NCBI GenBank assembly: GCA_020845455.1
Contig: JADLFO010000115.1
Span: 6,235-70,234, forward strand
DNA from: Caldilineaceae bacterium
GTDB taxonomy: Bacteria; Chloroflexota; Anaerolineae; Caldilineales; Caldilineaceae
Direction: 5' to 3'
Length of the DNA stretch: 64,000 nucleotides
Shown: piece by piece, positions 38,135 through 57,591 of the stretch
Position numbering within the stretch: the stretch's first letter is position 1
How the letters are laid out: each line of letters opens with the position of its first letter
Notes under the pieces: generated by a model
What the model was told of the DNA's origin: nothing
What the model saw: only the letters and a program-made list of their open reading frames with translations
The model's database searches: none
Made by a program: the position numbers and the translations under genes

Positions 38135-38382
38135 TGCGGTGCAAAATGGCTAGAGTAGAAATAGCTGAAGTAGATTTCTGTGGCAAACGACCCGGTGGTG
38201 CATGGCCTTTTGCCGATGTCGCCGGGACTGTTTGGTCTCGCAGTGACCTGCCCCGCCCGGCTGCATCCTCTCTGCCCCGCGCAGAGGGCATTTCCAACGG
38301 GAGATGACCGTTTTTTTGGCAGGCTCGCCGGCAATTTGCCATGATGCCTGCCTATCTGTATCTATCGATGGAGCATACCTTC

Positions 38383-39396
38383 ATGGCAAAATTGCTGGAA
38401 GTGAAGAACCTTAGAACCCAGTTCTTCACGCAAGATGGCGTTGTCCATGCCGTCAACGGCATCTCCTATTCGGTCGATAAAGGAGAGACAATCGCCATCG
38501 TGGGCGAGTCCGGCTCCGGCAAAAGCGTCGGGGTCATGTCCCTGATCCGGCTGATCCCACAGCCGCCGGGCAGAATCGTCGACGGCGAAGTCTGGTTCGA
38601 CGGGCAGGACTTGCTCAAACTCAGCGAAGACGAGCTGCGCCATGTGCGCGGCAATCGCATCGCCATGATCTTCCAAGACCCCATGACCTCGCTCAATCCG
38701 GTGCTTACGATTGGGCGGCAGATCACCGAGGCGCTCGAACTGCACCTAGATATGAACAAGGAGCAAAGCCGCAAGCGCGCCGTCCAATTGCTGGAGATGG
38801 TCGGCATCCCCGGTGCGGAATCGCGCCTGGACGACTACCCGCACCAGTTCTCCGGGGGGATGCGCCAGCGTGTGATGATTGCCATGGGGTTGAGCTGCAA
38901 CCCCCAACTGCTGATCGCCGACGAGCCAACCACCGCGCTCGACGTGACGATCCAGGCGCAGATCATCGACCTAGTAACTCGTCTCAAAGAAGAACTGGGC
39001 ATGTCCATCATTTGGATCACCCACGACCTGGGCGTCGTCGCCGGCATGGCGCAGCGCGTGCTCGTCATGTATTCGGGTTTCATCATCGAGGAAGCGCCGG
39101 TCGACCAGATCTACGCCAACCCGCGCCACCCCTACACGCTCGGCCTGCTGCGCTCGATCCCGCGGCTGGACTTGGGCCGCCAAAAGCGTCTGATCCCCAT
39201 TGAAGGGCTGCCGCCGGACCTGTTGGAACTGCCCAACCAGTGCCCGTTTGCGCCGCGCTGTGCATTTGTGATCGAAAAATGTTGGCAGGAGAACCCGCCG
39301 TTGGAGTTGGTGGGGCCAAACCATCGCGCCGCCTGCTGGGTCGATATTTCGAATGTGAAGGTGCATGTGACCGAAACCGAGGAGGCCGTGCAATGA
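38383..39396 (+). CDS. ABC transporter ATP-binding protein (OppD/DppD-type)
   Basis: Start ATG 38383 ([14 protein letters not shown]). Walker [10 protein letters not shown], signature FSGGMRQRV, Walker [14 protein letters not shown]-terminal Opp/Dpp extension ([11 protein letters not shown]...CPFAPRC). Confidence 0.9.
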
Positions 39397-40436
39397 GTCC
39401 GGCAACCGGCGCAGTTCAGACTTATTCCGCCGCTCAGCCTGCCGCGACCAATGGCCGCGGCGAGTCGCTGCTGAAGGTGCGCGACCTCAAGATGCACTTC
39501 CCCATCACACGCGGCATCATCTTTCAGCGCCAGGTGGGCGCGATCAAAGCCGTGGATGGGGTGGATTTCTCCATGGTCAAGGGAGAAACCCTGGGGCTGG
39601 TGGGCGAATCGGGCTGTGGCAAATCCACCACGGGTCGCGCCATTCTCCAACTCTATCGCCCGACCGACGGCGAGGTCTTTTTCGAAGGCGTGGACCTGAC
39701 CAAGACCAAGGGCGAAGAGCTGCGCAAGATGCGCCGCCGCATGCAGATGATCTTTCAAGACCCCTATGCCTCGCTCAACCCGCGCATGACCGTGGGCAGC
39801 ATCATCGGCGAGCCGCTTGAAGTACATAACATCGGCAGCAGCAAAAAGGAGCGTCAAGAGCGCGTCCAAGAATTGCTCAAGACGGTGGGGCTGAACCCCT
39901 ATTTTGTCAACCGCTACCCGCATGAGTTTTCCGGCGGTCAGCGCCAGCGCATCGGTGTGGCGCGCGCCTTGGCCGTCAACCCCGCCTTTATCGTCTGCGA
40001 CGAGCCGATCTCGGCGCTGGACGTGTCGATCCAGGCGCAGATCATCAACCTTTTGGAAGACCTGCAAGACGAGTTGGGGCTGACTTATCTCTTTATCGCG
40101 CACGATTTGTCGGTCGTGCGCCATATCTCCGACCGCATTGCGGTGATGTATCTTGGCAAAATTGTGGAGTTGGCCGACCGTGATGAACTGTATGCCAACC
40201 CCATGCACCCTTATACCCAGGCGTTGCTCTCGGCGGTGCCCATCCCCGACCCGGTGGTGGAAAGCCAGCGCCGGCGCATCATCCTGGAAGGCGATGTGCC
40301 CAGCCCGGCCAACCCCCCCAAGGGCTGCAACTTCTCCACCCGCTGCCCGCGCGTGATGGACATCTGTCGGGAGAAGGAGCCGCCCTTTAAGGGGTATGCG
40401 CCGGGTCACCATACGGCGTGTTGGCTGTATGAATAG
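39393..40436 (+). CDS. ABC transporter ATP-binding protein (OppF/DppF-type)
   Basis: ATGA overlap with the upstream stop and GAGGAG at 39380-39385. [46 protein letters not shown]. Confidence 0.9.
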
Positions 40437-40609
40437 CGCAAGATAGCTTCCCGGAAGCTCGGCGCTTCCGGGAAGCTCTGATCCCGCAGCTTGTACGGCA
40501 GCGCCGCCGCAGGGCCGGTTCAACTGTGTGAGAACAGCATCTGTCTACCTTTGAAGACTGATTGTCCGGTTCTTGCACTCGTGTCACTATACAAAGGAGT
40601 ATGGAGCGT

Positions 40610-42400
40610 ATGAAGATCAAGTGGTTATTGTTCACAGGGTTGCTGATCGCAGTTCTGGTCGTCGGCGCGTGTACGGCGCCCCCGGCTCCTGCCGGCGAGG
40701 CTGCGCCGGCTGCCGGCGGCGAAGCTGCCCAACCCGAAGCCGCCCCGGCTGAAACTGGCGAAAAGGTGACGTTAGACACTGTCTTTAGCACCGAACCGCC
40801 TACACTGGACCCCAGCCGAGGCACCGACAGCCAATCGATCTGGACCATCCGCCAGATATTCATGGGCCTCACCGGTTTTGACGAGCAGGCCAATGTTGTA
40901 CCTGCCCTTGCCACCGAGTGGTCGGTCTCCGAAGATGGCTTGACCTGGACCTACAAGCTGCGCGACGACGTGCATTGGGTCAAGCTCGACCCGGCCAGCG
41001 GTGAGTTTGCCGACCTGGGGCCTGTCACCGCCAAGGATGTCGAGTACGCCGTCAAGCGCACGTTGGACCCCAACACTGCCTCCGACTACGCCTATGTGCT
41101 CTATATCGTCCAGGGGGGTGAAGAGTTCAACACCGCCGACCCGGCCGCGGCCGACTTTGAAGATATTCGCAGCGCTGTGGGCGTAAAGGCGGTCGACGAC
41201 ACCACGGTCGAGTTCACGCTCAAGCAGCCCGCCGCCTATTTCCCCTCCATCACCGGTCTGTGGATCACCTTCCCGCAGAACCAGGAGGCTGTGGAAGCCG
41301 GCGGCGACACATGGACCGAACCGGGCAGCATCGTCACTAACGGCCCCTACACGCTGGAAACTTGGCAGCACGGAGCGGAGATGCGCTATGTGAAGAACCC
41401 GCTCTGGTACAACGCGGCCAACGTGCAGGTCGAGGTCATCCAAGGCCCCATCATCGAGTCCGAGTCGACGGCCATGTCGATGTATGAGGCCAACGAGATC
41501 GACATGATGGCCGACCCCGGTTGGGGGCCGCCGCTGCCCGACATGGACCGCATCAAGGCCGACCCGACGCTCAGCGCCGAACTGCTGATCGCCCCGCGCC
41601 TCTGCACCTACTACTATGGCTTTGTCAACACCAAGCCGCCCTTTGACAACCCGCTGGTGCGCAAGGCCTTTGCCGCGGCCATTGACCGCCAGAGCTTGAT
41701 CGACAATCTGCTCAAGGGCGAACAGGTGCCGGCGCACTCGTTTGTCTCGCCCGGCAATTTTGGCAACGTCGCCGGCGATATGTCAATCGGCGGCTGGATG
41801 GTGCAAGAGGACTTCGGCGCCCAGTTGGAGCAGGCACGCGCTTGGTTGGCCGAGGCCGGCTTCCCCGAAGGCGAGGGGATGAACATCACCTTGATGTACA
41901 ACACCTCCGAGGCCCATGCCCAGATTGCCCAGGCCGTGCAGGCCATGTGGGTGGAAGCCTTCCCCAAGGCCGTGATCAATGTCGAGAACCAGGAGTGGCA
42001 GGTCTATCTGACGACCTTGCTCCCCGACTCGCCGGTGGAAGAAAAGCCTGAGGTCTACCGCATGGGCTGGTGTGCCGACTATCCGGATGCCAACAACTGG
42101 CTCAACGAAGTCTTCCACTCCAAGTCGGGCCAGAATTATGCCGTCTTCAACAACCCAGAGTATGACGCTGCTGTTGAGGAGGCGGCTCTGGAGCCTGACC
42201 CGGCCAAGCGCCAGGAACTCTATAAGCAGGCCGAAACGCTGTTGATCGAAGACGCCACCGCCATCGCGCCGATCTACTACTACACCTATGTGCGTCTGTA
42301 CAAGCCGTGGGTAAGCTATGTGATTAGCCCCGTAACCGGCGATCCGGTCTCCGAATGGACGATCGACGTCGAAGCCAAGGCGGCTGCCCGGGGTCAGTAA
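40610..42400 (+). CDS. ABC transporter substrate-binding lipoprotein, family 5
   Basis: ATG 40610, 10 nt after AAGGAG (ATG 40601 is an alternative). Lipobox MKIKWLLFTGLLIAVLVVGAC. LATEWSVSEDGLTWTYKLRDDVHW, NGPYTLETWQ, LVRKAFAAAIDRQSL. Confidence 0.9.
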   Translation: MKIKWLLFTGLLIAVLVVGACTAPPAPAGEAAPAAGGEAAQPEAAPAETGEKVTLDTVFSTEPPTLDPSRGTDSQSIWTIRQIFMGLTGFDEQANVVPALATEWSVSEDGLTWTYKLRDDVHWVKLDPASGEFADLGPVTAKDVEYAVKRTLDPNTASDYAYVLYIVQGGEEFNTADPAAADFEDIRSAVGVKAVDDTTVEFTLKQPAAYFPSITGLWITFPQNQEAVEAGGDTWTEPGSIVTNGPYTLETWQHGAEMRYVKNPLWYNAANVQVEVIQGPIIESESTAMSMYEANEIDMMADPGWGPPLPDMDRIKADPTLSAELLIAPRLCTYYYGFVNTKPPFDNPLVRKAFAAAIDRQSLIDNLLKGEQVPAHSFVSPGNFGNVAGDMSIGGWMVQEDFGAQLEQARAWLAEAGFPEGEGMNITLMYNTSEAHAQIAQAVQAMWVEAFPKAVINVENQEWQVYLTTLLPDSPVEEKPEVYRMGWCADYPDANNWLNEVFHSKSGQNYAVFNNPEYDAAVEEAALEPDPAKRQELYKQAETLLIEDATAIAPIYYYTYVRLYKPWVSYVISPVTGDPVSEWTIDVEAKAAARGQ

Positions 42401-42417
42401 CCCCTTCGTCGTGAACT

Positions 42418-42467
42418 CACCTGCTGTTCCGGATGAAGCAAGACAAGCTTATCCGGAACAGCAGGTG
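42418..42467 (+). terminator. 17-bp perfect hairpin between the SBP and permease genes (attenuator/stabiliser candidate)
   Basis: CACCTGCTGTTCCGGAT-N16-ATCCGGAACAGCAGGTG, 18 nt after the stop at 42400. Confidence 0.45.
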
Positions 42468-42503
42468 TTCGTATAAAGGCTAGAAGTAGCAAAACCAACC
42501 ATC

Positions 42504-43568
42504 ATGTGGCGATTTATCCTCCGGCGGATTATCTGGTCTATCCCTGTTATCCTGCTTTTGACCTTTACAGTCTTTGCGCTGATGCGCGCGCTGCCGGGCG
42601 GCCCCTTCGACTTTGCAGGAGATAAGAGCCTGCCCAAGGCAGTGTCCGACAACCTCAAGCGTCGTTATCATCTCGACTGGCCTCTCTATCTCCAGTACTC
42701 ATCCTATTTGCTCGGCGACGATGTCACCTACGCCCTTTGTCGCGTCGTTCCGGTGACGCCCGGCTGTGACCAAGTGTTGACCTCGACCAACCTAGACGTC
42801 TCCAAGGGCATCATCCGCGGCGACTTGGGGCCGGCCATGCGCCAGCGCGGTCGCACCGTCAACGCGATCATCTCCGAGTCGTTCCCCATTTCGCTGCAAC
42901 TGGGCGCCATGGCGATCGCGTTCGGGCTGTTCTTTGGCATCCCCTTGGGAACGATCGCCGCGTTGCGCCAGAACACGGCCGTGGACTATATGGCGAGCTT
43001 CTTCGCCGTGCTGGGACTGTCCATCCCCAGCCTTGTTTTGGGGCCGCTGTTGATCTGGGTCTTTGCGCTGTGGCTGGGATGGTTCCCGGTTTCTACCTGG
43101 GGCGCAAAACCGCCCTTCCTTTTGGGCTTTATTCCTGTGCCCATAGCAGATTTCCTTCTGCATGCTGCGCTGCCCGTGACGGCCCTCGGGGTGGCGCTCA
43201 CGGCCAGCATCGCGCGCCTGACGCGCGCCAGCTTGCTCCAGGTGATCGGCGAGGATTATATCCGCACGGCGCGCGCCAAGGGGCTGCCCGGCCGTATTCT
43301 GGTGGTCCGCCATGCCCTGCGCAACAGCTTGATTCCGGTTGTGACGATTTTGGGGCCGCTGACCGCAGGGGTGGTGACCGGCTCGTTTATCACCGAGTTT
43401 GTCTTTGGCATCCCTGGAATGGGCAAGCATTTCATCACCAGCATCAGCAACCGCGATTACTCGTTGATCTCCGGCGCGACGCTGGTCTATGCGCTCATCT
43501 TGGTGTTGGCTAACCTGACGGTCGATATTTTGTACGCCTGGCTGGATCCGCGTATCCGGTATGATTAG
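42504..43568 (+). CDS. ABC transporter permease (OppB-type) with an enlarged first periplasmic loop
   Basis: EDYIRTARAKGLPGRILVVRHALRNS. The loop insertion is ...LLGDDVTYALCRVVPVTPGCDQVLTSTNLDVSKGIIRGDLG. Confidence 0.9.
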   Translation: MWRFILRRIIWSIPVILLLTFTVFALMRALPGGPFDFAGDKSLPKAVSDNLKRRYHLDWPLYLQYSSYLLGDDVTYALCRVVPVTPGCDQVLTSTNLDVSKGIIRGDLGPAMRQRGRTVNAIISESFPISLQLGAMAIAFGLFFGIPLGTIAALRQNTAVDYMASFFAVLGLSIPSLVLGPLLIWVFALWLGWFPVSTWGAKPPFLLGFIPVPIADFLLHAALPVTALGVALTASIARLTRASLLQVIGEDYIRTARAKGLPGRILVVRHALRNSLIPVVTILGPLTAGVVTGSFITEFVFGIPGMGKHFITSISNRDYSLISGATLVYALILVLANLTVDILYAWLDPRIRYD

Positions 43569-43722
43569 CTTGTAGCATCTTTTTTGACAGTGGGTCTGTC
43601 TGGCGACACCGCCATTCTCCTTGCCTGTGTGATGTATGTATCCAGCGGTGTATCCAACGGTACGCATGAACCGAGCGGGGGAACGGGGATAAGGCAGGCA
43701 AGTTTTTTGAAATGAGCGTTCT

Positions 43723-44778
43723 GTGGCTGTTGCAAAGCAATCCTTAACTCAAACGTCGCGTGACCGATCGTCGATTGACCTGATCAGCCGCCCGCGCAGC
43801 CCGCTCGGCGATGCCTGGCGCAGCTTGCTGCATCACCGCATGGCCGTGGCGAGCGGCTGTTTTGTGATTTTTCTCGCGGTGCTCGCCCTTTTGGCCGACT
43901 ATATCAATCCCTTCGTGTTCCAAGGCTACAGCGATGTGCTGGACAAACTCAACCAAACCGCCTATGCCAAGCAGACCCTGCAGGACAATGCCGCGCTGCC
44001 CATGAGCCAGTCGGCTAATCCGGACCTGGAGGGCTTTGTCTATTGGGTTGGGGCCGATTCGTTGGGCCGTGATCTGCTCAGCCGCACGCTGTACGGCGCG
44101 CGGGTGTCGCTGTCGGTAGCGATCACTGCCGCGCTCGTCAGCCTGATCATCGGGTTGGCCTATGGGCTGACGTCCGGCTATTTTGGTGGCCGGGTTGATG
44201 AACTGATGATGCGTTTTGTCGACTTTCTCTATGGCCTGCCCATTATTATCGTCGTCATCCTCATGCAGGTCTATTTCAAAGCGATGGCCCGTCGCGGCGG
44301 GGATGAAGGATTTGTGGGCACGATCCTCAGCATCAATGCTGCGATGGGCGGCATGCTCTTTGTCTTCATTGCGATCGGCGCGCTCAACTGGATCGGCATG
44401 GCGCGCATTGCGCGCGGCCAAACGCTGTCGTACAAGCAGAAAGAGTTTGTCGAAGCGGCACGCTCTACGGGCAGCCGGTCGCCGCGTATCCTCTTCTCCC
44501 ATCTGCTGCCCAATATCCTGGGGCCGTGTATCGTCCAAGAGACCCTGCAGATTCCTGGCTATATCCTGCTCGAAGCTACACTGAGCTTTATCGGTTTGGG
44601 CGTCGATCCCCCCACGCCGAGTTGGGGGATTATGATCAACGAGGGGTTTTTGGCGCTGCGCTCATCGCCCCATATCATTCTCGTCCCGGCCATTGCGTTG
44701 GTTGTGACTGTGTTGTCGTTTAACTTCCTGGGCGATGGGCTGCGCGACGCGTTTGACCCGCGCCAGCGTGGGGCGTAG
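43723..44778 (+). CDS. ABC transporter permease (OppC-type)
   Basis: GTG start. GADSLGRDLLSRTLYG, KEFVEAARSTGSRSPRILFSHLLPNI. Confidence 0.9.
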   Translation: MAVAKQSLTQTSRDRSSIDLISRPRSPLGDAWRSLLHHRMAVASGCFVIFLAVLALLADYINPFVFQGYSDVLDKLNQTAYAKQTLQDNAALPMSQSANPDLEGFVYWVGADSLGRDLLSRTLYGARVSLSVAITAALVSLIIGLAYGLTSGYFGGRVDELMMRFVDFLYGLPIIIVVILMQVYFKAMARRGGDEGFVGTILSINAAMGGMLFVFIAIGALNWIGMARIARGQTLSYKQKEFVEAARSTGSRSPRILFSHLLPNILGPCIVQETLQIPGYILLEATLSFIGLGVDPPTPSWGIMINEGFLALRSSPHIILVPAIALVVTVLSFNFLGDGLRDAFDPRQRGA

Positions 44779-44789
44779 ACGGTCTCCGC

Positions 44790-44831
44790 CCGTTCAGAAC
44801 TGTCCGTTCAAATCTGTTTATTCAGAAGCGC
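44790..44831. repeat. Three tandem 14-nt repeats upstream of the permuted SBP gene
   Basis: CCGTTCAGAACTGT / CCGTTCAAATCTGT / TTATTCAGAAGCGC, in a lower-GC spacer. Confidence 0.6.
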
Positions 44832-44876
44832 CGGTGTAAAACTGTGTCAATCTATCTTCAGCAGAAAGAGTGTGAC

Positions 44877-46838
44877 ATGAAGCAAAAACCATCACGCGGT
44901 AGTTCCATACGCATCTATGCTCTCTGGCTGTCGCTGGTCGTGCTGCTGGTCCTGTTGGCGGGCTGTGTGGCGCCGGCGGGCAGCACCACGGCCCCCGAAG
45001 CCGCCGCCACCGCAGTCCCGGCGGAAGAGGCCGCTGCCGAAGAAGTTCCGGCTGAAACGGTGTTTAGCGAAGATGCCTTTACCACGCCGCACCCGATCCT
45101 AAGTGATGTGCGTGTGCGCCAGGCCATCGCCCACTGCACCGACCGCGACGCCCTGATCGCCTCGGTCTATCCCTATGTGGACGACGAAACCAGACCGACC
45201 CTGCGCATGGACAGCTTCCTGCCCAAGACCCACTGGGCCTACAGCGGTCCCTATCAGGACTATCCGTATGACCCGGCGGCGGGCGCAGCGCTGCTCGACG
45301 AGGCCGGCTGGACGCTGCCCGACGGCGGCGCGGTGCGCCAGAACGCCAACGGCGACCCGCTGGCCCTGAGCCTGACCACCACCGACGCCCAGTTCCGTCA
45401 AACCTGGGCCGCCGTGGCCGAGCAGAACCTGGAAGGCTGTGGGTTTGACATCACCCGCAACCACACCCCGGCTTCCTGGTGGTTTGGCGACACCACCGGC
45501 CTGGCGCGCCGCGAGTTTGAACTGGGCGCGTTTGCCTGGGTGGGCGAGGCCAACCCCAAGGGGCAAACGCTCTACGCCTGCAATCAGATCCCGACGCCCC
45601 GCAACAACTGGGAGGGCCAGAACAGCATGGGCTGGTGCAACCAGGCTGCCAGCGACGCCGTCGTGCTGGCGAACAACACCCTGGACGAGGCCACCCGCAT
45701 CGATGCCTACAACATCGTTCAGGAAGAATTCGCCAAGGATATGGTCTCGCTGCCGCTCTTCCAGCGCGCCGAGGCTGAGGCCTGGAGCACCAACCTGGAA
45801 GGAATTCGCGTCAGCCCGACCGAGTATGCGACCGCCAGCGCAGCCGACTGGAGATTGGCTGACGGCGGCGACACAATTGTCGTCGGCTTCTCGCAGGAAC
45901 CGGCTTCGATGTTCACCCTGGTCGAGAGCGCGGCTGTTCAGCGCCAGATTTCTCAGATGGCAGTCGGTCTGCTCAACTCCCAGTTCGATTATGACTTCCA
46001 GCCGGTGATGCAAGACGGCTTTAGCACCATCGAAGACGGTCTGGCCACCAATGAGTTGGTCACGGTCGGCGCAGGGGATACGATTTACAACGCCGACGGC
46101 GAGCCGGAGGAACTGGCAGCAGGCACGCGTTTCATCCTCGATGGTCAGGTGACTGAATACGACGGCACAAGCGAACTGCAACTGCCGCAGTTGGTTGTGA
46201 CCTATAAGCTCAAGCCCTATACCTGGAGTGACGGCACGCCCGGCTCGATTGACGATGTCCGGCTGGCCTATACACTCAACTGTGACCCCGAATCCGGCGC
46301 GGTCGATTTCATCACCTGCCGCTCGATTGAGAACATAGAGTATGCCGAGGATGGGGCGCTGGAGTGGACGGTCACCTATCTGCCGAATGTGCAGGACCCC
46401 TATTACTACATGATGCCCTTCTGGCAGGGCACCGGCCTCTATCCGGCGCATCAAGTCGTCAGCGATGGCCGCCGGCTGGCCGACGTGCCTGCCGCCGAAT
46501 GGACCACCCTGCCTGAGATCGCCGAGATGCCGTTGAGCTATGGCCCCTTCGTGATCACCGAGTGGATCAAGGGCCAGAGCATCACGATGGAGCGCAATCC
46601 GCACTATGCAGGCGAGGTGGGCGTCGAGCGCATCGTGGTCGTCTTCATCACCGACACCAACCAGGCCGTGGCCCAGTTGCTGAGCGGCGATGTGGACTAT
46701 CTGGAGAAGGCTACCCTGGGTGGCGGCGCCGAGGTGCAAACCTTGATCGACGCTGCCGAAAGTGGCGGTGAGGTGCATATCGATATCATTCCCAGCCCGA
46801 CCTGGGAACACATCGATATGAATATGTACATTCCGTAA
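44877..46838 (+). CDS. Family-5 substrate-binding lipoprotein with apparently circularly permuted domain order
   Basis: ATG 44877. Lipobox LVVLLVLLAGC plus an Ala/Glu-rich linker. Residues ~80-340 carry motifs that are C-terminal in the paralogs (PHPILSDVRVRQAIAHCTDRDALI, YDPAAGAALLDEAGW). Residues ~344-664 carry N-terminal-type motifs (TIVVGFSQEPASMF, KLKPYTWSDGTPGSIDDV, YGPFVITEWIKGQSITMERNPHY, LLSGDVDY), and the protein ends ...WEHIDMNMYIP. Residue numbers follow the 664-aa track ORF. Confidence 0.85.
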   Translation: MKQKPSRGSSIRIYALWLSLVVLLVLLAGCVAPAGSTTAPEAAATAVPAEEAAAEEVPAETVFSEDAFTTPHPILSDVRVRQAIAHCTDRDALIASVYPYVDDETRPTLRMDSFLPKTHWAYSGPYQDYPYDPAAGAALLDEAGWTLPDGGAVRQNANGDPLALSLTTTDAQFRQTWAAVAEQNLEGCGFDITRNHTPASWWFGDTTGLARREFELGAFAWVGEANPKGQTLYACNQIPTPRNNWEGQNSMGWCNQAASDAVVLANNTLDEATRIDAYNIVQEEFAKDMVSLPLFQRAEAEAWSTNLEGIRVSPTEYATASAADWRLADGGDTIVVGFSQEPASMFTLVESAAVQRQISQMAVGLLNSQFDYDFQPVMQDGFSTIEDGLATNELVTVGAGDTIYNADGEPEELAAGTRFILDGQVTEYDGTSELQLPQLVVTYKLKPYTWSDGTPGSIDDVRLAYTLNCDPESGAVDFITCRSIENIEYAEDGALEWTVTYLPNVQDPYYYMMPFWQGTGLYPAHQVVSDGRRLADVPAAEWTTLPEIAEMPLSYGPFVITEWIKGQSITMERNPHYAGEVGVERIVVVFITDTNQAVAQLLSGDVDYLEKATLGGGAEVQTLIDAAESGGEVHIDIIPSPTWEHIDMNMYIP

Positions 46839-46863
46839 CGTTGCTCCGCTGCATACAACAATG

Positions 46864-46901
46864 GAAGCGAGGCTCAGGTCTGAGCCTCGCTTCTCAGACC
46901 T
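46864..46901 (+). promoter_or_regulatory. Two mutually exclusive hairpins after the permuted SBP gene
   Basis: Hairpin A: GAAGCGAGGCTCA-GGTC-TGAGCCTCGCTTC (46864-46893). Hairpin B: AGGTCTGAG-N8-CTCAGACCT (46876-46901). They share nucleotides. Confidence 0.4.
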
Positions 46902-46910
46902 AAGTAGGTA

Positions 46911-46962
46911 ATGGGCGGGCAGGGTCATACCGATCCGGCTCGCCCATTTTGCGATTTTTTTT
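46911..46962 (+). terminator. Stem (ATGGGCG...CGCCCAT) followed by a T8 run; possible partial terminator before the permease gene
   Basis: The T8 run is at 46955-46962. The stem arms are at 46911-46917 and 46941-46947, and the large loop makes this atypical. Confidence 0.3.
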
Positions 46963-46982
46963 GAAGACGAGTAGGCGCCACT

Positions 46983-48161
46983 ATGACAGGCTATCTGGTA
47001 CGACGACTTTTTCAAATGATGCTGGTCACTTTGTTAGCGGCCATGGCAACCTATTTTCTGTTTAGCATCGCGCCCGGCGGGCCGCTGACCGGCATCCGCC
47101 AGTCACAGTTGCGTCTGACACGCGAGGATATCGCCCGGATGCGCGCCGAGTTTGAGATGGACCTCTATTGGCCGGTGCGCTTCTCGCGCTGGCTGATCGG
47201 CGTGCCCAATGGCCCCATCGTCGTCGGCGGGCTGGAATGGTTTGTCAATGTGCCCGTGGGCTGTTATCTGCCCAACGACGACGGCTCCTGTGACGACTAT
47301 GTCTATCTGCACGAACTCCCCCAGCTTCATCCCGAGGTGCGCGGCAGCGACGGCGTGCTGCGCGGCGACTTTGGCCGCTCGACCGTAATCCGCCAGGGCG
47401 CGCCTGTCTCTGCCGAACTTGGCAGCCGTCTGGGGCCTACGCTCGAACTGATGGTCAGCGCGCTGCTGCTCTCGCTGTTGATCGGCGTGCCGATAGGCAT
47501 TTTCAGCGCGGTGCGCCAATATTCGCGCTTTGACTATTTCTTTACCACGGTCTCGTTTATCGGTTCCTCGATGCCGGTCTTCTTCTTTGGGCTGCTGCTG
47601 ATCTTGGCCTTCTCGGTCATGCCGGTCTTTTTGGAAGACACCTTCCCCTGGTTGCCACGGCTGCCGTCGGGGCTGCGTGTCGCCATCCGCCCCTATGAGA
47701 TTGCGCCCTGGCTGCCGAAGATCCAGCCCGGTTCGCCGGCCGACCGCATCCTGCACCTCGCCATGCCGCTGACGGTGTTGACCTTTTTCAACACCGCCAC
47801 CTGGAGCCGCTTTGTGCGCTCCTCGATGTTGGAAGTGCTGCGCCAAGACTATGTACGCACGGCGCGCGCCAAGGGCTTGGTCGAGCGCGTGGTGATCATG
47901 AAACACGCCCTGCGCAACGCCCTGATCCCCTTTGTCACGATCTTGGTGCTGCAGATCCCCGGCGTCTTTGCCGGCGCGATCATCACCGAGACGGTCTTTG
48001 CCTGGCCGGGGATGGGGCGGCTCTATGTGGATGCGCTCAACCGCAGCGATTGGCCGGTGGCGCTGGCCTTTATCTTTATCACGGCGGTGCTGACCGTGAT
48101 CGCAACACTGCTGGGCGACATCCTGTATACCGTGGTTGACCCGCGTATCAAATATACATAA
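46983..48161 (+). CDS. ABC transporter permease (OppB-type) with an enlarged first periplasmic loop
   Basis: 392 aa. QDYVRTARAKGLVERVVIMKHALRNA. The loop insertion is ...VGGLEWFVNVPVGCYLPNDDGSCDDYVYLHELPQLHPEVRGSDGVLRGDFG. Confidence 0.9.
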   Translation: MTGYLVRRLFQMMLVTLLAAMATYFLFSIAPGGPLTGIRQSQLRLTREDIARMRAEFEMDLYWPVRFSRWLIGVPNGPIVVGGLEWFVNVPVGCYLPNDDGSCDDYVYLHELPQLHPEVRGSDGVLRGDFGRSTVIRQGAPVSAELGSRLGPTLELMVSALLLSLLIGVPIGIFSAVRQYSRFDYFFTTVSFIGSSMPVFFFGLLLILAFSVMPVFLEDTFPWLPRLPSGLRVAIRPYEIAPWLPKIQPGSPADRILHLAMPLTVLTFFNTATWSRFVRSSMLEVLRQDYVRTARAKGLVERVVIMKHALRNALIPFVTILVLQIPGVFAGAIITETVFAWPGMGRLYVDALNRSDWPVALAFIFITAVLTVIATLLGDILYTVVDPRIKYT

Positions 48162-48191
48162 ACTACGGGGAAACCGTCTGGAGAGACCACT

Positions 48192-49190
<999 letters not shown>

Positions 49191-49192
49191 CG

Positions 49193-49228
49193 TACGGACA
49201 CGATATGACACGATATATCGTGTCCGTA
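49193..49228. repeat. REP-like palindrome (copy 2, variant with a duplicated left arm)
   Basis: TACGGACACGAT-ATGACACGATAT-ATCGTGTCCGTA. The inner perfect palindrome is GACACGATATATCGTGTC (49207-49224). It starts 3 nt after the stop at 49190. Confidence 0.8.
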
Positions 49229-49282
49229 TGGGGCGATCTCGGACTTTGTCTGCGCGGCGCAAGCCGCCTAGTTGCTTGATCA

Positions 49283-50428
49283 ATGGAACATACGGTGAAT
49301 CAAACGATTCTAGAACAACCCCGCGCCGCCACACCGATCAACGGCGAACCGCTGTTGGAGGTGAAGGGGTTGCGCACCTATTTTTATACTGAAGACGGTG
49401 TCGTCCAGGCCATCAACGGCGTAGATTTTGTGATCCGCCTCGGCGAGGTGATGGGGCTGGTAGGGGAATCGGGCAGCGGCAAGAGCGTCACGTCGCTTTC
49501 GATCATGCGCCTGCTGCCTGCCTCCGGCAAGATCGTCGCCGGGGAAATCCACTTCGACGGTCGCGACCTGGCGGCTGCGCCCGAAGAGGTGATGGTGCAA
49601 CTGCGCGGCGACGACCTTTCGATGATCTTTCAGCAGCCGACAAGCTGTCTCAACCCGGTCTTTCGCATCGGCGACCAGATCGCCGAGACGATCATGGTCC
49701 ATCAAGAGATGACGCGGCAGCAGGCCTGGAACCAGGCGGTGGAGATGCTGCGCAAGGTCGGCATCCCCGACCCGGAGCGGCGCGCCACGGCCTTTCCGCA
49801 TGAGATCAGCGGCGGGCAGGCGCAGCGCGTCATGATCGCTATGGCGCTTTCCTGTCTGCCCAAACTGCTGATCGCCGACGAGCCAACCACCGCGCTCGAC
49901 GTGACGATCCAGGCGCAGATTTTGGACTTGATGCGCGCCCTGCGCTCCGAGACGGGGACGGCCATCCTGCTGATCACGCATGACATGGGCGTGATCGCCG
50001 AGATGTGCGATTCGGTGGCGGTGATGTATGCGGGGCAGATCGTCGAATACGCCGATGTGATCACGCTCTTCGACGAGCCGCTGCACCCCTATACCGAAGG
50101 GCTGCTGGCCGCCATCCCTGTGCTGGGCGACGTGCAAGACACCTTGGCCGTCATCCCCGGCTCTGTGCCCAACCTGATCGAACTGCCGCCGGGCTGTAAG
50201 TTTGCGCCGCGCTGCCCCTATGCCAAAGATGTGTGCGTCGAACGAGACCCGGCCTTGCTCGAGGTCCGGCCCGACCATCAGGTGCGCTGTTTTATGCGTG
50301 ACCCGCAAACCGCCCATCTGTGGGCCGGGGTGAAGCGCACCGACTGGCGTTTTGAGGGCGACGAAGTCTTTGTCGACGGGACAAATGCGGCGGATGTGGC
50401 CGGCGTGGCCGAAACGGGGGGGCGATAG
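49283..50428 (+). CDS. ABC transporter ATP-binding protein (OppD-type)
   Basis: [36 protein letters not shown], plus a C-terminal extension. Confidence 0.9.
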
Positions 50429-50430
50429 GC

Positions 50431-51483
50431 ATGGCGATCCCGGTTGACGTTTCCACGCACGATCTGCTGGCGGTCGAGGACCTGCGCACCTACTTCCCCA
50501 TCCGCTCCGGTGTCTTGCAGCGTGTCGTCGCCCAAGTCAAGGCGGTGGACGGGGTGAGCTTCTCGATCCGCGAGGGCGAGACCTTTGGGCTGGTGGGCGA
50601 GTCGGGCTGTGGCAAGACCACGGTAGCGCGCACCATCCTGAAGCTGCAGAAGGCTACAGGCGGTTCGGTCTTTTTCGACGGCGAAGATGTCCTCGCCAAG
50701 CGCGGCGGCGACCTCAAGGCGCTGCGCCGCAACATGCAGATCATCTTCCAAGACCCCTATTCTTCGCTCGACCCGCGTATGCCGGTGGGTGACATCATCG
50801 CCGAGGGGTTGTATATCCACGGCATGCGCGACGCCAAGCAGCGCAGCAGCGTTGTGCAAGAGATGCTGGATAAGGTGGGGCTGAACCCCTACCATGCCCA
50901 CCGCTACCCGCACGAGTTTTCCGGCGGGCAGCGCCAGCGCATTGGCATTGCGCGCGCCCTGGCGCTCAACCCGCGCTTTATTGTGCTTGACGAGCCGGTC
51001 TCGGCGCTGGATGTATCGATCCAGTCGCAGATCCTCAACCTGCTGCGCAGCCTGCAGGCCGAGTTTGGCTTTACCTATCTCTTTGTGGCGCATGACCTGA
51101 GCGTGGTCGAACATATTAGCGACCGCGTCGGCGTGATGTATTTGGGCAAGCTGGTGGAGGTGACCAAACGGTCGGAACTGTATGCCAACCCGCTCCATCC
51201 TTACACCCAAGCGCTGCTCTCGGCGATCCCGATCCCCGACCCGCGCCGCCGGCGGCAGCGCATTACCTTGACCGGCGAAGTGCCTTCGCCGGTGAACCCG
51301 CCGAGCGGCTGTCGTTTCCATCCCCGCTGCCCCTTTGTGATGGACATCTGCAAAGAGGTGGAGCCGCCGCTGGAGCAAAAGGCCGAGGGCCATTGGGCGG
51401 CGTGCCACTTGTATACCAAGGGGCAGACCGGCGTCTCCGCCGCGCGTGCGGCAGGGCAGCCGCTGCCGGCGCGGCCGGCCTAA
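50431..51483 (+). CDS. ABC transporter ATP-binding protein (OppF-type)
   Basis: [46 protein letters not shown]. Confidence 0.9.
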
Positions 51484-51743
51484 CTTTTAGCTCCGTCTTA
51501 GATACACTTCACGTTAGCTTTATCTTGCCTGGGGAAAATGCCATAGGGTATCCGCTGCCAGGATGCTTCCTGGAAGTTCGCAGAATCTGCGAATGACCAT
51601 CGAATGCTCCGAACAGGGAAGGCCAATGGAATTCAGCTACTTTGCCCCTTGGCGAGAGTATGCTATAACAGGCCCAAGTCGCCCCAAAAAACTTCACGCT
51701 GTTCCAACCGATGCCGTAGCAGAGAGTGGAAGGAGAGTTGGTT

Positions 51744-53495
51744 ATGCACAAACGATTCCACCGATCCCGGTCGCTGTGGGTGACGCTGCTGATGCTGGTC
51801 GCGCTGGTGGCGGCCGCGTGCAGCGCGCCTGCGCCCGCCGGGACCGAAGCCGAAGCCGCCGAAGCCCCTGCGGTCGATCAGTCGCAGGCCGCCCAGTCGG
51901 TCGAAGTCAAGGGCGTCACCGTTACCAGCGATGAAGAGGTTTCTTCGCCGCGCACCCACTTTGGCGGCGAATATCACGACGTCTCCACCTCCGACGCCGT
52001 CAGCTTTCACCCCTATCTGACCACCGATACCGCCTCTAGCGGCTATCAGGGCATGGTCTACACCGGGGCGCTGCTGCGGCTGGACGAGAACACGCTGGAG
52101 TACATCCCCAACATGGCGGAGAGCTACACCATCTCCGAGGACGGGTTGACCTTCACCTTCAACCTGCGCCAGGACATGAAGTGGAGCGACGGCGAACCGC
52201 TGACCGCCCAAGACTTCAAATATGCCTACGACCAGGCGACCAAGCCGGAGAACGAGTTCCCCTATCTGTCGCAGTTGGATTTCATCGCCTCCTACGAAGC
52301 GCCGGACGACTTCACGCTGCAGATCGTGATCAAGGAACCCTATGCGCCGGCGTTGGGCCAGATGTCTGGGCTGATCACCCCGCTGCCCAAGCATGTTTGG
52401 GAATCCCTGGACTGGAAGGACCCGGAGAAGAACCCGGAGATCAACAGCCCCTCGGTTGTCTCCGGCCCCTATAAGCTGGTGGAGTGGAAGCGCGACCAGT
52501 ATGTGATCTTCGAAGCCAACGAGAACTACTGGTATCACGGGCGGCCCAACTTCGACCGCTATGTGATCGAGATCGTGCCCGACACCGACGTGGGCTATCA
52601 GAAGATGAAGAACAGCGAGACCGACACCGGCACGATCCTGCCCGAACAGTTGGAGGAGGCGCGCAACCTGCCCAACATCAATGTCTATGAGTGGTGGCCC
52701 GCGGCCGCGTCGTGGACCTATATCGGTCTCAACATGCGCACCGAGGGCGCGCCTACCCAGGACATCAACGTGCGCCACGCCATCAACTATGCCATCGACA
52801 AGGAACTGTTGACCGACGAGGTGATGCTCGGCCAGGCCAAGCGGCTCTGTTCGGTCTTCCCCGAAACGTCGTGGGTCTACAACCCGGACGTGCCCTGCTA
52901 TGACTATGACCCCGACAAGGCCATCGCCGCCTTCCAGGAGGCTGGGTACACCTTCCAAGACGGCAAGATGCTCGACGCCGACGGCCAGCAGTTGACGCTT
53001 AAGCTGGTCTACGGCCCCAACACCAACAAGATCCGTGAGTTGATCGCCACCGTCGTGCAAGACCAACTGGGTGAGATCGGCGTCAACGTGGAGATTCAGG
53101 CGCTGGAGTGGGCCAGCTTCCTCGAAGCGACTTCGGCGGCGGAGGTCGACTGGGATATGTTTATCGGCGGCTGGCGCGCCACCATCGAGCCGCACATCAT
53201 GTACACCATCTGGGAGCTGGACAAGGACAACCCCAGCTATGACCTGAACTCGGTCGGCTATGACAACGACCAGGTCGAGGAGATCTTTAGAGAGGGTGGC
53301 CGGACCTACGACAATGCGGTGCGCAAGGAGAAGTATCAGGAGGTGCAGCGCATCATTGCCGAAGAGTCGCCCTATGTCTTCCTCTATTATTCCAAGGCCT
53401 GGAGCGGCCAGAACAAGCGCATTCAGGGCATCGAGCCGACGGCGCTGGGCATCGGCTGGAACCAGGAAGATTGGTATATCCAAGAGACACAGTAG
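51744..53495 (+). CDS. ABC transporter substrate-binding lipoprotein, family 5
   Basis: ATG 51744 after GGAAGGAGAG. Lipobox LLMLVALVAAAC. MAESYTISEDGLTFTFNLRQDMKWSDGEPLTAQDF, SGPYKLVEWK, INVRHAINYAIDKELL. Confidence 0.9.
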   Translation: MHKRFHRSRSLWVTLLMLVALVAAACSAPAPAGTEAEAAEAPAVDQSQAAQSVEVKGVTVTSDEEVSSPRTHFGGEYHDVSTSDAVSFHPYLTTDTASSGYQGMVYTGALLRLDENTLEYIPNMAESYTISEDGLTFTFNLRQDMKWSDGEPLTAQDFKYAYDQATKPENEFPYLSQLDFIASYEAPDDFTLQIVIKEPYAPALGQMSGLITPLPKHVWESLDWKDPEKNPEINSPSVVSGPYKLVEWKRDQYVIFEANENYWYHGRPNFDRYVIEIVPDTDVGYQKMKNSETDTGTILPEQLEEARNLPNINVYEWWPAAASWTYIGLNMRTEGAPTQDINVRHAINYAIDKELLTDEVMLGQAKRLCSVFPETSWVYNPDVPCYDYDPDKAIAAFQEAGYTFQDGKMLDADGQQLTLKLVYGPNTNKIRELIATVVQDQLGEIGVNVEIQALEWASFLEATSAAEVDWDMFIGGWRATIEPHIMYTIWELDKDNPSYDLNSVGYDNDQVEEIFREGGRTYDNAVRKEKYQEVQRIIAEESPYVFLYYSKAWSGQNKRIQGIEPTALGIGWNQEDWYIQETQ

Positions 53496-53506
53496 TGGAT
53501 TGGACG

Positions 53507-53541
53507 CGCTGCGCCTTCCGGGTTCGCCGGAAGGCGCAGCG
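53507..53541 (+). terminator. 15-bp perfect hairpin between the SBP and permease genes
   Basis: CGCTGCGCCTTCCGG-GTTCG-CCGGAAGGCGCAGCG followed by TTTG, 12 nt after the stop at 53495. Confidence 0.5.
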
Positions 53542-53555
53542 TTTGAGGGGCCGTT

Positions 53556-54596
53556 ATGACGCGTTATATCATCCGCCGCACGCTGCAATCGATCGTTTTG
53601 GTGTGGGTCTCCACGCTGATCGCTTTCTCCATCTACCAGGCCGCGCCGGGCGGGCCGCTCCAGTTTTTGGACGACGACCCCAAACGCACGCAGGCCGACG
53701 CCGACCGGTTGACCCGGCTCTATGGGCTGGATCGCTCGATCCCCGTGCAATATGTAGCCTGGGCCTTTGGCGAAGATTGGCTGCCCCACAATGAGACTTG
53801 GCGCAGCGGGCGCTGTCTGAGCGACGCCGGCAACTGCGGGCATGGGATTGTGCGGCTGGACTTTGGTCGCTCGTTCTCCTTCAAGGGGCAGCGCGTGCTG
53901 GACTTGATCGTCGAGCGCATCCCGGCGACCTTCACGCTGGCCTTTGCCAGTTTGATCCTGAGCGTCGTCATCGGTTTCCCATTGGGCATCATCGCCGCCT
54001 ATACACGCGGGCACTGGCCCGACAACCTGATTCGGGTCAGCACGGTGCTGGTCAACACCGTGCCTGAGTGGTGGATCGGGCTGCTGCTGTTGATCATCCT
54101 GGGCGGCTATCTCGGTTGGGTGCCGCTGGGCGGCATGTACACCATCGGCGACGGGTCGCTGCCCGACCGGCTGCGCCACCTGGCGCTGCCCGCGCTGGTC
54201 AGTTCGATCAGCGGCTGGATCGGCTTTTCGCGCATCCTGCGTTTTGAGATGCTGGAGGTGCTCAACCAAGACTATGTGCGTACGGCCAAGGCCAAAGGGC
54301 TGTCGGCCTATGCCATCGCCACGCGCCATGTGCTGCGCAACGCCATCATGCCCTTTGTCACCGGGCTAAGCGGCATCTTCCTGCTGATCCTGTCTGGGTC
54401 GGTGCTGTTTGAGATCGTCTTTTCCTGGCCCGGCATGGGGCGGCTGACGATCAACGCCATCAACGCCCGCGACTATCCCATGATGATGGCGCTCTTTGTG
54501 ATCAGTTCTTTCCTGGGCATCCTCGGCACGTTGATGGTGGATATTCTGTACAGCGTGGTGGACCCGCGTGTGCGTTACGATAGGACGGTAAACTAG
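53556..54596 (+). CDS. ABC transporter permease (OppB-type) with an enlarged first periplasmic loop
   Basis: QDYVRTAKAKGLSAYAIATRHVLRNA. The loop insertion is ...FGEDWLPHNETWRSGRCLSDAGNCGHGIVRLDFG. Confidence 0.9.
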   Translation: MTRYIIRRTLQSIVLVWVSTLIAFSIYQAAPGGPLQFLDDDPKRTQADADRLTRLYGLDRSIPVQYVAWAFGEDWLPHNETWRSGRCLSDAGNCGHGIVRLDFGRSFSFKGQRVLDLIVERIPATFTLAFASLILSVVIGFPLGIIAAYTRGHWPDNLIRVSTVLVNTVPEWWIGLLLLIILGGYLGWVPLGGMYTIGDGSLPDRLRHLALPALVSSISGWIGFSRILRFEMLEVLNQDYVRTAKAKGLSAYAIATRHVLRNAIMPFVTGLSGIFLLILSGSVLFEIVFSWPGMGRLTINAINARDYPMMMALFVISSFLGILGTLMVDILYSVVDPRVRYDRTVN

Positions 54597-54599
54597 ACC

Positions 54600-55655: not shown

Positions 55656-55716
55656 CTCGCCTCCAGTGTTTCGCCGGTAAAGCGCCAATGATAAGCCTGT
55701 ATCGTCCTACAATCGT

Positions 55717-55744
55717 GTACGGACACGAACTATCGTGTCCGTGC
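55717..55744. repeat. REP-like palindrome (copy 3)
   Basis: GTACGGACACGA-ACTA-TCGTGTCCGTGC. Its first 26 nt are identical to 27238-27263. Degenerate partial arms lie upstream at 55702-55716. Confidence 0.8.
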
Positions 55745-55836
55745 GGGCCTATTCTCTGCATGTCCCATACTCCATCTGCGAGCCTGGGGCATTGACAATC
55801 GCTTATGAAACATCGTCTGTGACCCGTTCTGACCTG

Positions 55837-57591
55837 ATGGTGACGGCGGCGCTGGCCGTCGTCGTGCTGCTCCTGGCCGCCTTTTACGGCTGGCGTTGGT
55901 GGAACTCACCGCAGGCCGTGGCGCTTGCCACCCCCGTAGCGACGCAGGCGGCATCTCCCCCCACTCCGGTTGCAACTCTCCCTACCGGGCTGGGCGCGGT
56001 CCCGCTGTTGACCCCGCCGCCCTCCGGCGGCGACCTGCGCGAAGCGGTAGCCGCCGATGCGATCGGGCTTAACCCGCTTTTCGCCGGCGACCCCGCCGGC
56101 AGCCGTGTAGCCGATCTGCTCTACCCCCGGCTGGTCGGCCAGGACCCCAGCGGCGGCTTTCCGGTTCCCACCGAACTGGCGCAGCGCTGGGAAGTCTCAC
56201 CCGATGGCCGGGTCTATACTTTTACGCTGCGTTCCGGCGTGGCCTGGAGCGACGGCACGCCCGTGAGCGCGGCGGATGTCAAATTCACCTATGACGCCTT
56301 GGCGGATGCGCGCGTGCAAAGCCCCTTCCGCGACCGCGCCGCGGCCATCGCCGCCATCGATACGCCTGACGCCCATACGGTCGTCGTCACGCTGCGCAGC
56401 CCGTCGTGCAGCGCGCTGTTCAGCCTGCGCCAGCCGCTGCTGCCCAGCCATCGCTATGCGCCCGATTTCTCCGACCTCCAGACCAATCCGCTCAACGCCG
56501 CGCCGTCTGTCAGCGCCGGGCCGTTTCGCTTTGCGGAGCATCGCCCCGGCGAGCGCATCGTCCTGGCGCGCGATGATCAATACTGGAAGGGCGCGCCGCG
56601 GCTGGATCGCTGGGTGCTGCAGGTGATCCCCGACGCCGCCGCACGCCGCCAGGCGGTGGAAAGCGGCACGGTGGACCTGGTGACGCTCGATCCGCCGGAG
56701 ATCGTGCAGTACGGCCTGCCGGCCAGTCCCCAGATCGCGGTCTATGACTACCCCGCCGACGGCTATACCGTCCTGGCGTTCAACCTGGCTGACCCCGCCA
56801 ATCCCCAGCCGGGCCGGGATGCGGCGGGCGCGGCCATCGACCAGCCGCCCCACCCTATCCTGGGCGACGGCGCGGTGCGCCAGGCCATCGCCGAGGCGCT
56901 AGACATCCCCCGTCTGCTCGACGAGGTTTGGCAGGGACAGGGATACCCGCTGAACAGCTATGTGCTGCCGACGGTGGGTTGGGCCGCAGCCGACCTGTCG
57001 AACGTGCTGCATGACCCGGCACGCGCCGGCCGGCGGCTGGAGGAGGCGGGCTGGAGCGACCCTGACGGCGACGGCATTCGCGCCGCGGGCGATAGGCCGC
57101 TGCGCCTCACGCTCCAGACAAACGAGGATAACCCGCTGCGCGTGCAACTGGCCGAACGCATCGCTGCCCAGTTACGCGCTGCCGGATTTCAGATCGACCT
57201 GGCCGTGGGGCCGTTTGAGGAGGTCAGCGCCGCGCTGCTCGACCAGCGCTTTGACCTGGCGGTGATCGGCTGGGAGAATGTGGGCGCGGACCCGGCGCTC
57301 AGCCCCTTCTGGCACAGCCGTGAGGATCGTCCCGGCGCGGGCTTTAACGTCACCAGCTTTCACGATGCCGAGGTGGACGGCCGGCTTGACGCCGCCGATC
57401 AGATGCCCGGCTGCGGGCTGGACGAGCGCGGCGCGCTCTACCGCCAGGTGCAGGAGCAGCTTGCCCAAAGCCACCCCTACATTTTCCTGGCGGGTCACAA
57501 GGCCGCGTGGGTCTATGCCAACCGCTGGCAGGGCATCGCGCCCGGCCCGTGGGGGCTGACCTACAACGTCGAAGCCTGGGCGCTGAAGTGA
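55837..57591 (+). CDS. ABC transporter substrate-binding protein, family 5 (membrane-anchored)
   Basis: Likely start ATG 55837 (MVTAALAVVVLLLAAFYGW); the 5' extension of the track ORF runs through the REP element. LAQRWEVSPDGRVYTFTLRSGVAWSDGTPVSAADV, AGPFRFAEH, PPHPILGDGAVRQAIAEALD, RRLEEAGW. Confidence 0.85.
   Translation: MVTAALAVVVLLLAAFYGWRWWNSPQAVALATPVATQAASPPTPVATLPTGLGAVPLLTPPPSGGDLREAVAADAIGLNPLFAGDPAGSRVADLLYPRLVGQDPSGGFPVPTELAQRWEVSPDGRVYTFTLRSGVAWSDGTPVSAADVKFTYDALADARVQSPFRDRAAAIAAIDTPDAHTVVVTLRSPSCSALFSLRQPLLPSHRYAPDFSDLQTNPLNAAPSVSAGPFRFAEHRPGERIVLARDDQYWKGAPRLDRWVLQVIPDAAARRQAVESGTVDLVTLDPPEIVQYGLPASPQIAVYDYPADGYTVLAFNLADPANPQPGRDAAGAAIDQPPHPILGDGAVRQAIAEALDIPRLLDEVWQGQGYPLNSYVLPTVGWAAADLSNVLHDPARAGRRLEEAGWSDPDGDGIRAAGDRPLRLTLQTNEDNPLRVQLAERIAAQLRAAGFQIDLAVGPFEEVSAALLDQRFDLAVIGWENVGADPALSPFWHSREDRPGAGFNVTSFHDAEVDGRLDAADQMPGCGLDERGALYRQVQEQLAQSHPYIFLAGHKAAWVYANRWQGIAPGPWGLTYNVEAWALK

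Follow-up and report, generated by a model that had tools for sequence, protein, structure and literature searches.

A probable circularly permuted family-5 substrate-binding lipoprotein encoded with an Opp-type importer in Chloroflexota

A 64,000-nucleotide stretch of a metagenome-assembled Caldilineaceae genome (contig JADLFO010000115.1, positions 6,235 to 70,234; the whole stretch is called the window here) contains an open reading frame (ORF) for a substrate-binding protein in which the two halves of the usual sequence appear in swapped order, followed on the same strand by two permease and two ATPase genes (Table 1). The protein encoded by ORF 44877..46838 is very probably a genuinely circularly permuted member of family 5, i.e. 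of the Opp/Dpp/Nik or cluster C substrate-binding lipoproteins of ATP-binding cassette (ABC) transporters. An identical protein from a Caldilineaceae metagenome-assembled genome is present in NCBI, labelled merely 'peptide ABC transporter substrate-binding protein', and the gene has an alternative GTG start at 44844.

Table 1. Features of the permuted gene and its downstream transporter (window coordinates; aa, amino acid residues of the encoded protein; AF2, AlphaFold2; pLDDT, predicted local distance difference test)
Feature	Coordinates	Strand	Basis or remarks
Gene for permuted family-5 substrate-binding lipoprotein	44877..46838	+	ORF, 653 aa from ATG plus stop
Signal peptide, lipobox LLAGC (Cys30) at its end	44877..44966	+	Sequence; AF2 helix aa 7-28
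Ala/Glu/Pro-rich flexible tether, aa 31-67	44967..45077	+	Composition; pLDDT <50 for aa 29-59
C-module, aa 68-327, corresponding to canonical domain III and the C-terminal segment of domain I	45078..45857	+	hhalign, 2d5w, Opp4A
Long strand SLPLFQRAEAEAWS, aa 291-304, corresponding to canonical hinge 2	45747..45788	+	AF2 strand, aa 291-304; crossover role putative
Fusion joint ADGGD, aa 328-332, old C-terminus to old N-terminal strand	45858..45872	+	Comparison with canonical ends
N-module, aa 333-653, corresponding to first strand of domain I, extra domain II and middle of domain I	45873..46835	+	Template columns ~71-375, 2d5w, Pfam
Two hairpins between binding-protein stop and permease start	46864..46962	+	Perfect 13-bp stem 46864-46893; GC-rich stem ~46911-46947, then T-run
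Cognate OppB-type permease	46983..48161	+	Pfam BPD_transp_1
Cognate OppC-type permease	48192..49190	+	Pfam OppC_N and BPD_transp_1; conserved synteny
OppD-type ATPase	49283..50428	+	Pfam ABC_tran and oligo_HPY; conserved synteny
OppF-type ATPase	50431..51483	+	Pfam ABC_tran and oligo_HPY; conserved synteny

Anatomy of the encoded chain

The product is predicted to be lipidated: in an alignment of 41 homologues the lipobox cysteine never varies, and A29 is shared by at least 90% of the sequences. Thirteen Ala, seven Glu and four Pro make up most of the 37-residue tether. Six further cysteines are invariant among the homologues and would be compatible with disulfides in an extracytoplasmic protein.

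Every motif quoted by an earlier, sequence-only reading of this DNA (hereafter the first-pass annotation) is at its place in the swapped order. The C-module carries FTTPHPILSD (residues 68-77), YDPAAGAALLDEAGW (131-145) and ADWRL (323-327), the joint ADGGD follows, and the N-module carries TIVVGFSQEP (333-342), KLKPYTWSDG... (444-461), YGPFVITEW... (555-577) and LLSGDVDY (601-608). Canonical relatives end in '...AEWDLPGK' and begin their mature part with '...IVVAIGQEP', and the permuted protein reads '...ADWRL-ADGGD-TIVVGFSQEP', so the old ends have been fused almost directly. Within the joint, G330 and D332 are invariant in the 41 close homologues.

At the other end the N-module closes with WEHIDMNMYIP (residues 643-653, at the stop), the place where canonical proteins continue into domain III. 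Their chains run on into '...PHPxLSDxRVRQA', the very segment with which the folded part of the permuted protein starts. Of the 27 divergent family members that have the WEHxD motif, 15 terminate precisely 11 residues from its W. One detail of the first-pass comparison needs correction: in the window paralog at 55735..57591, YTVLAFNLADP (residues 344-354) had been described as directly adjacent to PPHPILGD (residue 371 onward), and 16 residues lie between them. A subgroup of permuted proteins (P0124, P0126, P0140, P0147, P0148 and P0173), ~770-780 residues long, carries a C-terminal extension of ~150 residues past WEHxD, and in these the new hinge-side C-terminus is not free.

Module order, family membership and predicted fold

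The module swap is real and was demonstrated in four independent ways. In BLASTP comparisons with the window paralogs, residues 77-329 align with paralog positions 346-587 and residues 439-607 with positions 141-300. A search of the PDB matched Thermus thermophilus 2d5w in rotated pieces (residues 332-390 on 6-69, 552-651 on 206-311 and 75-299 on 322-552), while NikA 245-372 matched residues 58-193 and DppA 274-340 matched residues 73-145. Among the NCBIfam models, residues 73-323 fall on positions 312-552 of the 556 in the Opp4A profile; each of the four window paralogs gives a single collinear match to full-length profiles.

The fourth line of evidence is an hhalign comparison of an alignment of 41 homologues with one of 18 of the nearest canonical relatives. 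In native order only 259 columns could be aligned (residues 60-326 on template positions 376-640 of 643, E 2.9e-68), whereas de-permutation in silico, i.e. placing residues 331-653 before residues 70-330, gave 555 collinear columns (1-583 on 71-640, E 2e-126) with a small gap only at the artificial junction, ...WEHIDMNMYIP/TPHPILSD.... The N-terminal part (residues 68-327) corresponds to the C-terminal 40% of the canonical relatives and residues 333-653 to their N-terminal 60%, and chance is excluded by the alignment E-values. These profile alignments support the first-pass proposal of a true circular permutation with old termini fused by a short joint and new termini at the inter-lobe crossover; a collinear formal profile alignment had been named there as one result that would refute the idea, and collinearity was obtained only after de-permutation.

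The same rotation is visible in the family match itself. Pfam SBP_bac_5 (PF00496) scores 147.8 bits, with a gathering cut-off of 32.4 (E 5.9e-43), in two stretches as the first-pass annotation had anticipated, the best of which places residues 438-650, the C-terminal third of the protein, on positions 16-208 of the 368 in the profile, i.e. on its first half. None of the NCBIfam equivalogs (Opp4A, NikA, DppA, OppA, SapA and GsiB) reaches its curated cut-off and all of their matches are partial, the highest-scoring, Opp4A, reaching 101.9 of the 650 bits required. Assignment to SBP_bac_5 and cluster C is nevertheless supported by the profile score, the operon partners, the export signal and the presence of all three structural parts: lobe 1 (domain I), the extra domain II and lobe 2 (domain III) were found both in the de-permuted profile alignment and in Foldseek matches to the two halves. 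What the protein does not share with cluster C is the canonical sequential topology with two hinge crossovers, the order being rotated in every alignment. Homology to MglB-type cluster B proteins was not found, all sequence and structure matches being to family 5 or cluster C.

An AlphaFold2 model calculated with the 41 homologues has a mean pLDDT of 84.1 and a predicted template modelling score of 0.80. Low confidence is limited to the signal peptide, the tether and one loop, and the pLDDT is 91-94 over residues 321-340, joint included. Residues 70-71 and 651-652 are both predicted as two-residue beta bridges. All top Foldseek matches in the PDB are family-5 proteins (NikA, AppA, 2d5w, OppA and Mycobacterium tuberculosis OppA), with alignments of 230-340 columns each, about half the chain, and query-normalised template modelling scores of 0.2-0.3. 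Half-chain alignments are the expected outcome, because the aligner is order-dependent and the protein is permuted; no solved structure in this search was collinear with it over its full length.

In order, the chain consists of lipoprotein signal, tether of ~37 residues, domain III, hinge-2 strand and last segment of domain I, and, after the five-residue joint, of the first strand of domain I, domain II and the middle of domain I, where it stops. The old termini are fused, and the new ones lie at the very point of passage from lobe 1 to lobe 2 in canonical proteins (crossover 1). By the published domain boundaries for OppA, DppA and NikA, the new termini coincide with the first of the two inter-lobe crossovers, and the NikA and DppA ranges matched in the PDB search are consistent with those boundaries. 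The strand at residues 291-304, in which F295, Q296, R297, E299 and A300 are invariant among the homologues, would therefore be the only remaining covalent link between the lobes. By homology and by the model, the lobes are predicted to have a single covalent crossover between them, one fewer than usual, within an otherwise canonical Venus flytrap fold, and the membrane tether would leave from the hinge side of lobe 2, not from the first strand of lobe 1.

Conservation and origin of the permuted clade

The C-then-N order is present in 120 of the 120 close homologues listed (60-86% identity), which come from NCBI, JGI, ENA and Logan assemblies. When 1.84 billion cluster representatives were searched exhaustively, the family grew to 42 divergent clusters (at 50% identity), each with exactly one long copy per module, C before N, and with identities down to ~35%; relatives of canonical order begin to turn up in this search at ~38% identity. 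Furthermore, a scan of one genome per species gave 543 relatives, from which 79 loci were kept, all matching over essentially full length. These loci belong to Caldilineales, Anaerolineae, several Chloroflexus genomes and Roseiflexus; they include contigs of more than 1 Mb and the isolates Chloroflexus islandicus isl-2 and Chloroflexus sp. MS-G. The first-pass annotation had asked whether the permuted order is conserved as a clade and had named misassembly as an alternative: the former is borne out at all three levels of the search, and the latter is excluded by the 120 close homologues and by the 79 loci with their cultured isolates and contigs of up to megabase size.

Separate neighbour-joining trees of the two modules, each built from 42 permuted and 30 canonical proteins with 200 bootstraps, split the permuted from the canonical sequences cleanly and without exception, with bootstrap values of 121/200 for the C-module and 185/200 for the N-module. 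Both modules have the same three canonical proteins as nearest relatives, namely P0181, P0179 and P0188, which are Anaerolineae and Caldilineaceae proteins. The permuted clade is monophyletic in both trees, and the swapped order is conserved across Chloroflexota. The four window paralogs are distant, with at most 35% identity over partial alignments to either half, and the simplest reading would be a single old event within Chloroflexota in which they were not involved. An origin in this locus rich in binding-protein genes, as suggested by the first-pass annotation, does not fit an event that is old and common to Chloroflexota classes, with only distant relatives in the window.

At one locus (L004; CALOBW010000033.1, a 329 kb contig) the permuted gene and its transporter, 69-81% identical to those of the window, belong to a metagenome-assembled genome labelled Thermodesulfobacteriota; this is either a mis-binned or mislabelled Chloroflexota contig or a case of horizontal transfer. 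Some genomes have two permuted copies, either in two successive operons (L050 and L052) or as the pairs L013 with L051 and L015 with L045. The clade has therefore diversified into paralogs, which possibly differ in ligand.

Circular permutations typically arise through duplication, fusion and trimming. The permuted protein may have originated once in this way in an ancestral chloroflexotan: a tandem duplication would have been fused and then trimmed, and the 5' signal sequence and tether would have had to be kept. The nearest canonical relatives carry a like lipobox and long linker; the signal was therefore probably inherited, not freshly added as the first-pass annotation had it. The same annotation's duplication, fusion and trimming scenario is made plausible by the tandem C-N-C-N fusions that exist within the clade, P0121 (1474 residues) and P0270 (1494 residues, on six contigs), although it stays an inference, these fusions not being true intermediates. 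They show that the route to permutation is accessible, yet do not themselves represent steps on it, as they derive from already permuted units. The junction from N to C inside P0121 re-creates the uninterrupted hinge of canonical proteins, '...TWEHIDLNLGYVPRTVKPAADLRVRQAIAYC...', and a Pfam scan found a bacterial Ig-like domain at the C-terminus of this protein. An N-C-N protein, P0133, was considered as a duplication intermediate and ruled out, being a fragment of the C-N-C-N cluster P0270.

Other members of the family show further rearrangements. In P0162 (1055 residues) a permuted C-then-N module lies C-terminal to a Ser/Thr protein kinase domain and in P0172 (889 residues) C-terminal to a TIR domain; judged by these architectures, the permuted module has apparently been recruited as a sensor domain. 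Seven proteins (P0125, P0137, P0156, P0182, P0186, P0209 and P0238) have C-C, C-C-N or C-only arrangements directly after the signal peptide. The remainder of the C-only proteins (350-500 residues) matches no Pfam family, and a similar C-terminal motif occurs in P0125 and P0137 (YLPLTRR and YLPMTIR) and near the C-terminus of P0209 (YLPMITRR).

Downstream importer, known binding proteins and alternative explanations

In 74 of the 79 loci the OppB-type permease gene (47-91% identity) comes immediately after the permuted gene and in the same orientation, and the second permease and both ATPases also follow in most of them. Across loci, the identity of the downstream transporter genes rises and falls in step with that of the binding protein, and in the Chloroflexus loci the permuted gene is the sole binding-protein gene at that operon. 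The content upstream of the permuted gene varies between genomes, the downstream genes being conserved. A strong hairpin is found at the position equivalent to that of the window hairpins in 71 of the 74 related loci, with a mean minimum free energy of -31.3 kcal/mol as against -18.8 kcal/mol for shuffled sequences. A hairpin after the binding-protein gene commonly serves to keep binding-protein output above that of the permease, and its conservation here suggests an attenuator or messenger RNA stabiliser that sets the ratio of the two. A sigma-70 promoter scan around the permuted gene gave nothing usefully above shuffled expectation.

On account of the synteny, the neighbouring genes and the hairpins, the permuted protein is taken as a working receptor, most likely the lipid-anchored receptor of the downstream OppBCDF-type importer. 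An oligopeptide is the default guess for its ligand, since the nearest solved relative, 2d5w, binds a pentapeptide (PDB match), and by this analogy an oligopeptide-like ligand is proposed with low confidence. Prediction of the ligand from conserved residues was dropped, because the position of the Asp that binds the peptide amine in DppA and OppA, which is Gln/Glu in the present protein, is not reliably mappable without structural alignment.

A full-text literature search, with many subscription papers beyond its reach, found no permuted family-5, Opp or Dpp protein, which agrees with the first-pass annotation, whose author was aware of none. With canonical family-5 proteins (OppA, DppA, NikA, AppA and 2d5w) the permuted protein shares the Pfam family, the 555 alignable columns and the OppBCDF-type partners, and with its canonical Chloroflexota relatives it shares the export signal and tether. 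Unlike them, its chain starts at domain III and ends at the crossing point from lobe 1 to lobe 2, and one crossover would be replaced by free termini, with the tether attached to lobe 2 at the hinge.

A parallel in kind is TpMglB-2 (Tp0684) of Treponema pallidum, a circularly permuted ligand-binding protein for which the class 'Cluster Bc / Type Ic' was proposed and whose authors speculated on a link between permutation and tethering (PMC4990184). Like the present protein it is a natural permutant and a lipid-tethered ABC-type binding protein; it has homologues of permuted topology and has retained the bilobed fold (PMC4990184). It is, however, a sequence-unrelated, MglB-like cluster B protein with three hinge segments (PMC4990184); the two share the phenomenon but not the ancestry of the event. 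Its permutation moves three strands of the N-lobe and adds a fourth crossover, and its permuted part is barely alignable, at 13% identity (PMC4990184). Here, by contrast, a loss from two crossovers to one is proposed, and both modules align clearly with canonical relatives. TpMglB-2 is the only natural precedent for a permuted ABC binding protein found in the literature. In engineered permutants of periplasmic binding proteins, made as biosensors, the termini lie near the hinge and the native ends are joined by a short linker, and the proteins still fold. They were built in the laboratory, for the most part from proteins of clusters B, D and F, whereas the present clade is natural, was fixed long ago and has its own transporter.

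The window comes from a metagenome-assembled genome that holds four other family-5 paralogs, which is the setting in which an assembly or gene-calling artefact could fuse two different binding-protein genes, with the 3' half of the first followed by the 5' half of the second. Such an artefact is practically inconceivable here: the order recurs in every close homologue listed, from independent assembly sources, and in species-level loci that include cultured Chloroflexus isolates and megabase contigs; the joint and both termini are conserved, and neither half is close to any window paralog. Domain shuffling, in which the lobe-2 module of one family-5 gene was fused to the lobe-1 module of another, is a second alternative: the C-C, C-C-N and C-only proteins show that the modules can rearrange independently, and between the modules, identity to canonical relatives is only weakly correlated (Spearman 0.30, p 0.11). 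Such a chimera is still quite improbable, because the three nearest canonical relatives are identical for both modules, both module trees give the same clean split, and, once de-permuted, the family can be aligned over its whole length with a single canonical profile, small gaps occurring only at the old junction.

The protein could also be truly permuted but serve mainly for sensing or signalling and not for transport by the adjacent ABC importer. The fusions to kinase and TIR domains point in this direction, as does the discussion of the natural permutant TpMglB-2 as a possible chemoreceptor (PMC4990184). This role is nevertheless judged unlikely for the window protein, which is without a signalling domain, has the permease directly downstream, mostly with the second permease and two ATPases behind it and with identities that track its own, is the only binding protein at the operon in Chloroflexus, and is separated from the permease gene by a conserved hairpin or attenuator of a kind typical of transport operons. 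A circularly permuted receptor of the downstream importer therefore remains the preferred explanation. Weighing against parts of it are the bootstrap for monophyly of the C-module, which is only 60%, and the weak correlation of module identities given above; the statements on the same fold and a single crossover stand on homology and a confident model, and, as regards the ligand, the compounds bound within family 5 also include metals, sugars and opines.

The classification of substrate-binding proteins, like accounts of their mechanics, is based on the chain crossings between the two lobes. A large, old clade that apparently works with one cluster C crossover cut is a natural experiment on the contribution of the hinge strands to flytrap closure and permease docking. 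It adds to Treponema MglB-2 a second, independent case of natural permutation among ABC binding proteins, both of them lipid-tethered. A bolder and rather doubtful proposal is that this is the first natural cluster C clade in which one hinge crossover is replaced by free termini, that the change was adaptive and not neutral, the single-crossover hinge and the tether on the hinge side of lobe 2 altering the open/closed equilibrium or the docking geometry of a membrane-anchored receptor, and that the module was favoured for reuse as an extracytoplasmic Ser/Thr kinase or TIR sensor and as a tandem receptor. The rearrangement is hidden by current annotation and by profile models that give two partial matches. 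Natural termini on the hinge side and a short, tolerated joint mark useful sites for the engineering of family-5 biosensors, and the coexisting C-N-C-N tandem fusions offer material for studying how permutations arise; the clade is of interest for binding-protein mechanics, the evolution of protein topology and biosensor design alike.

The permuted gene lies within a dense Opp-type ABC cluster (38341-57591), which also holds canonical binding-protein genes at 40562-42400, 51726-53495 and 55735-57591, three permease pairs and an extra ATPase gene at 38341-39396. The OppB-type permease encoded next to the permuted gene has 392 residues, as against 354 and 346 for the two other OppB-type permeases of the window, and the Pfam model of the N-terminal permease domain was not detected in it. 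It carries two insertions, one with two cysteines, which presumably lie in extracytoplasmic loops and may be linked to docking of the permuted binding protein.

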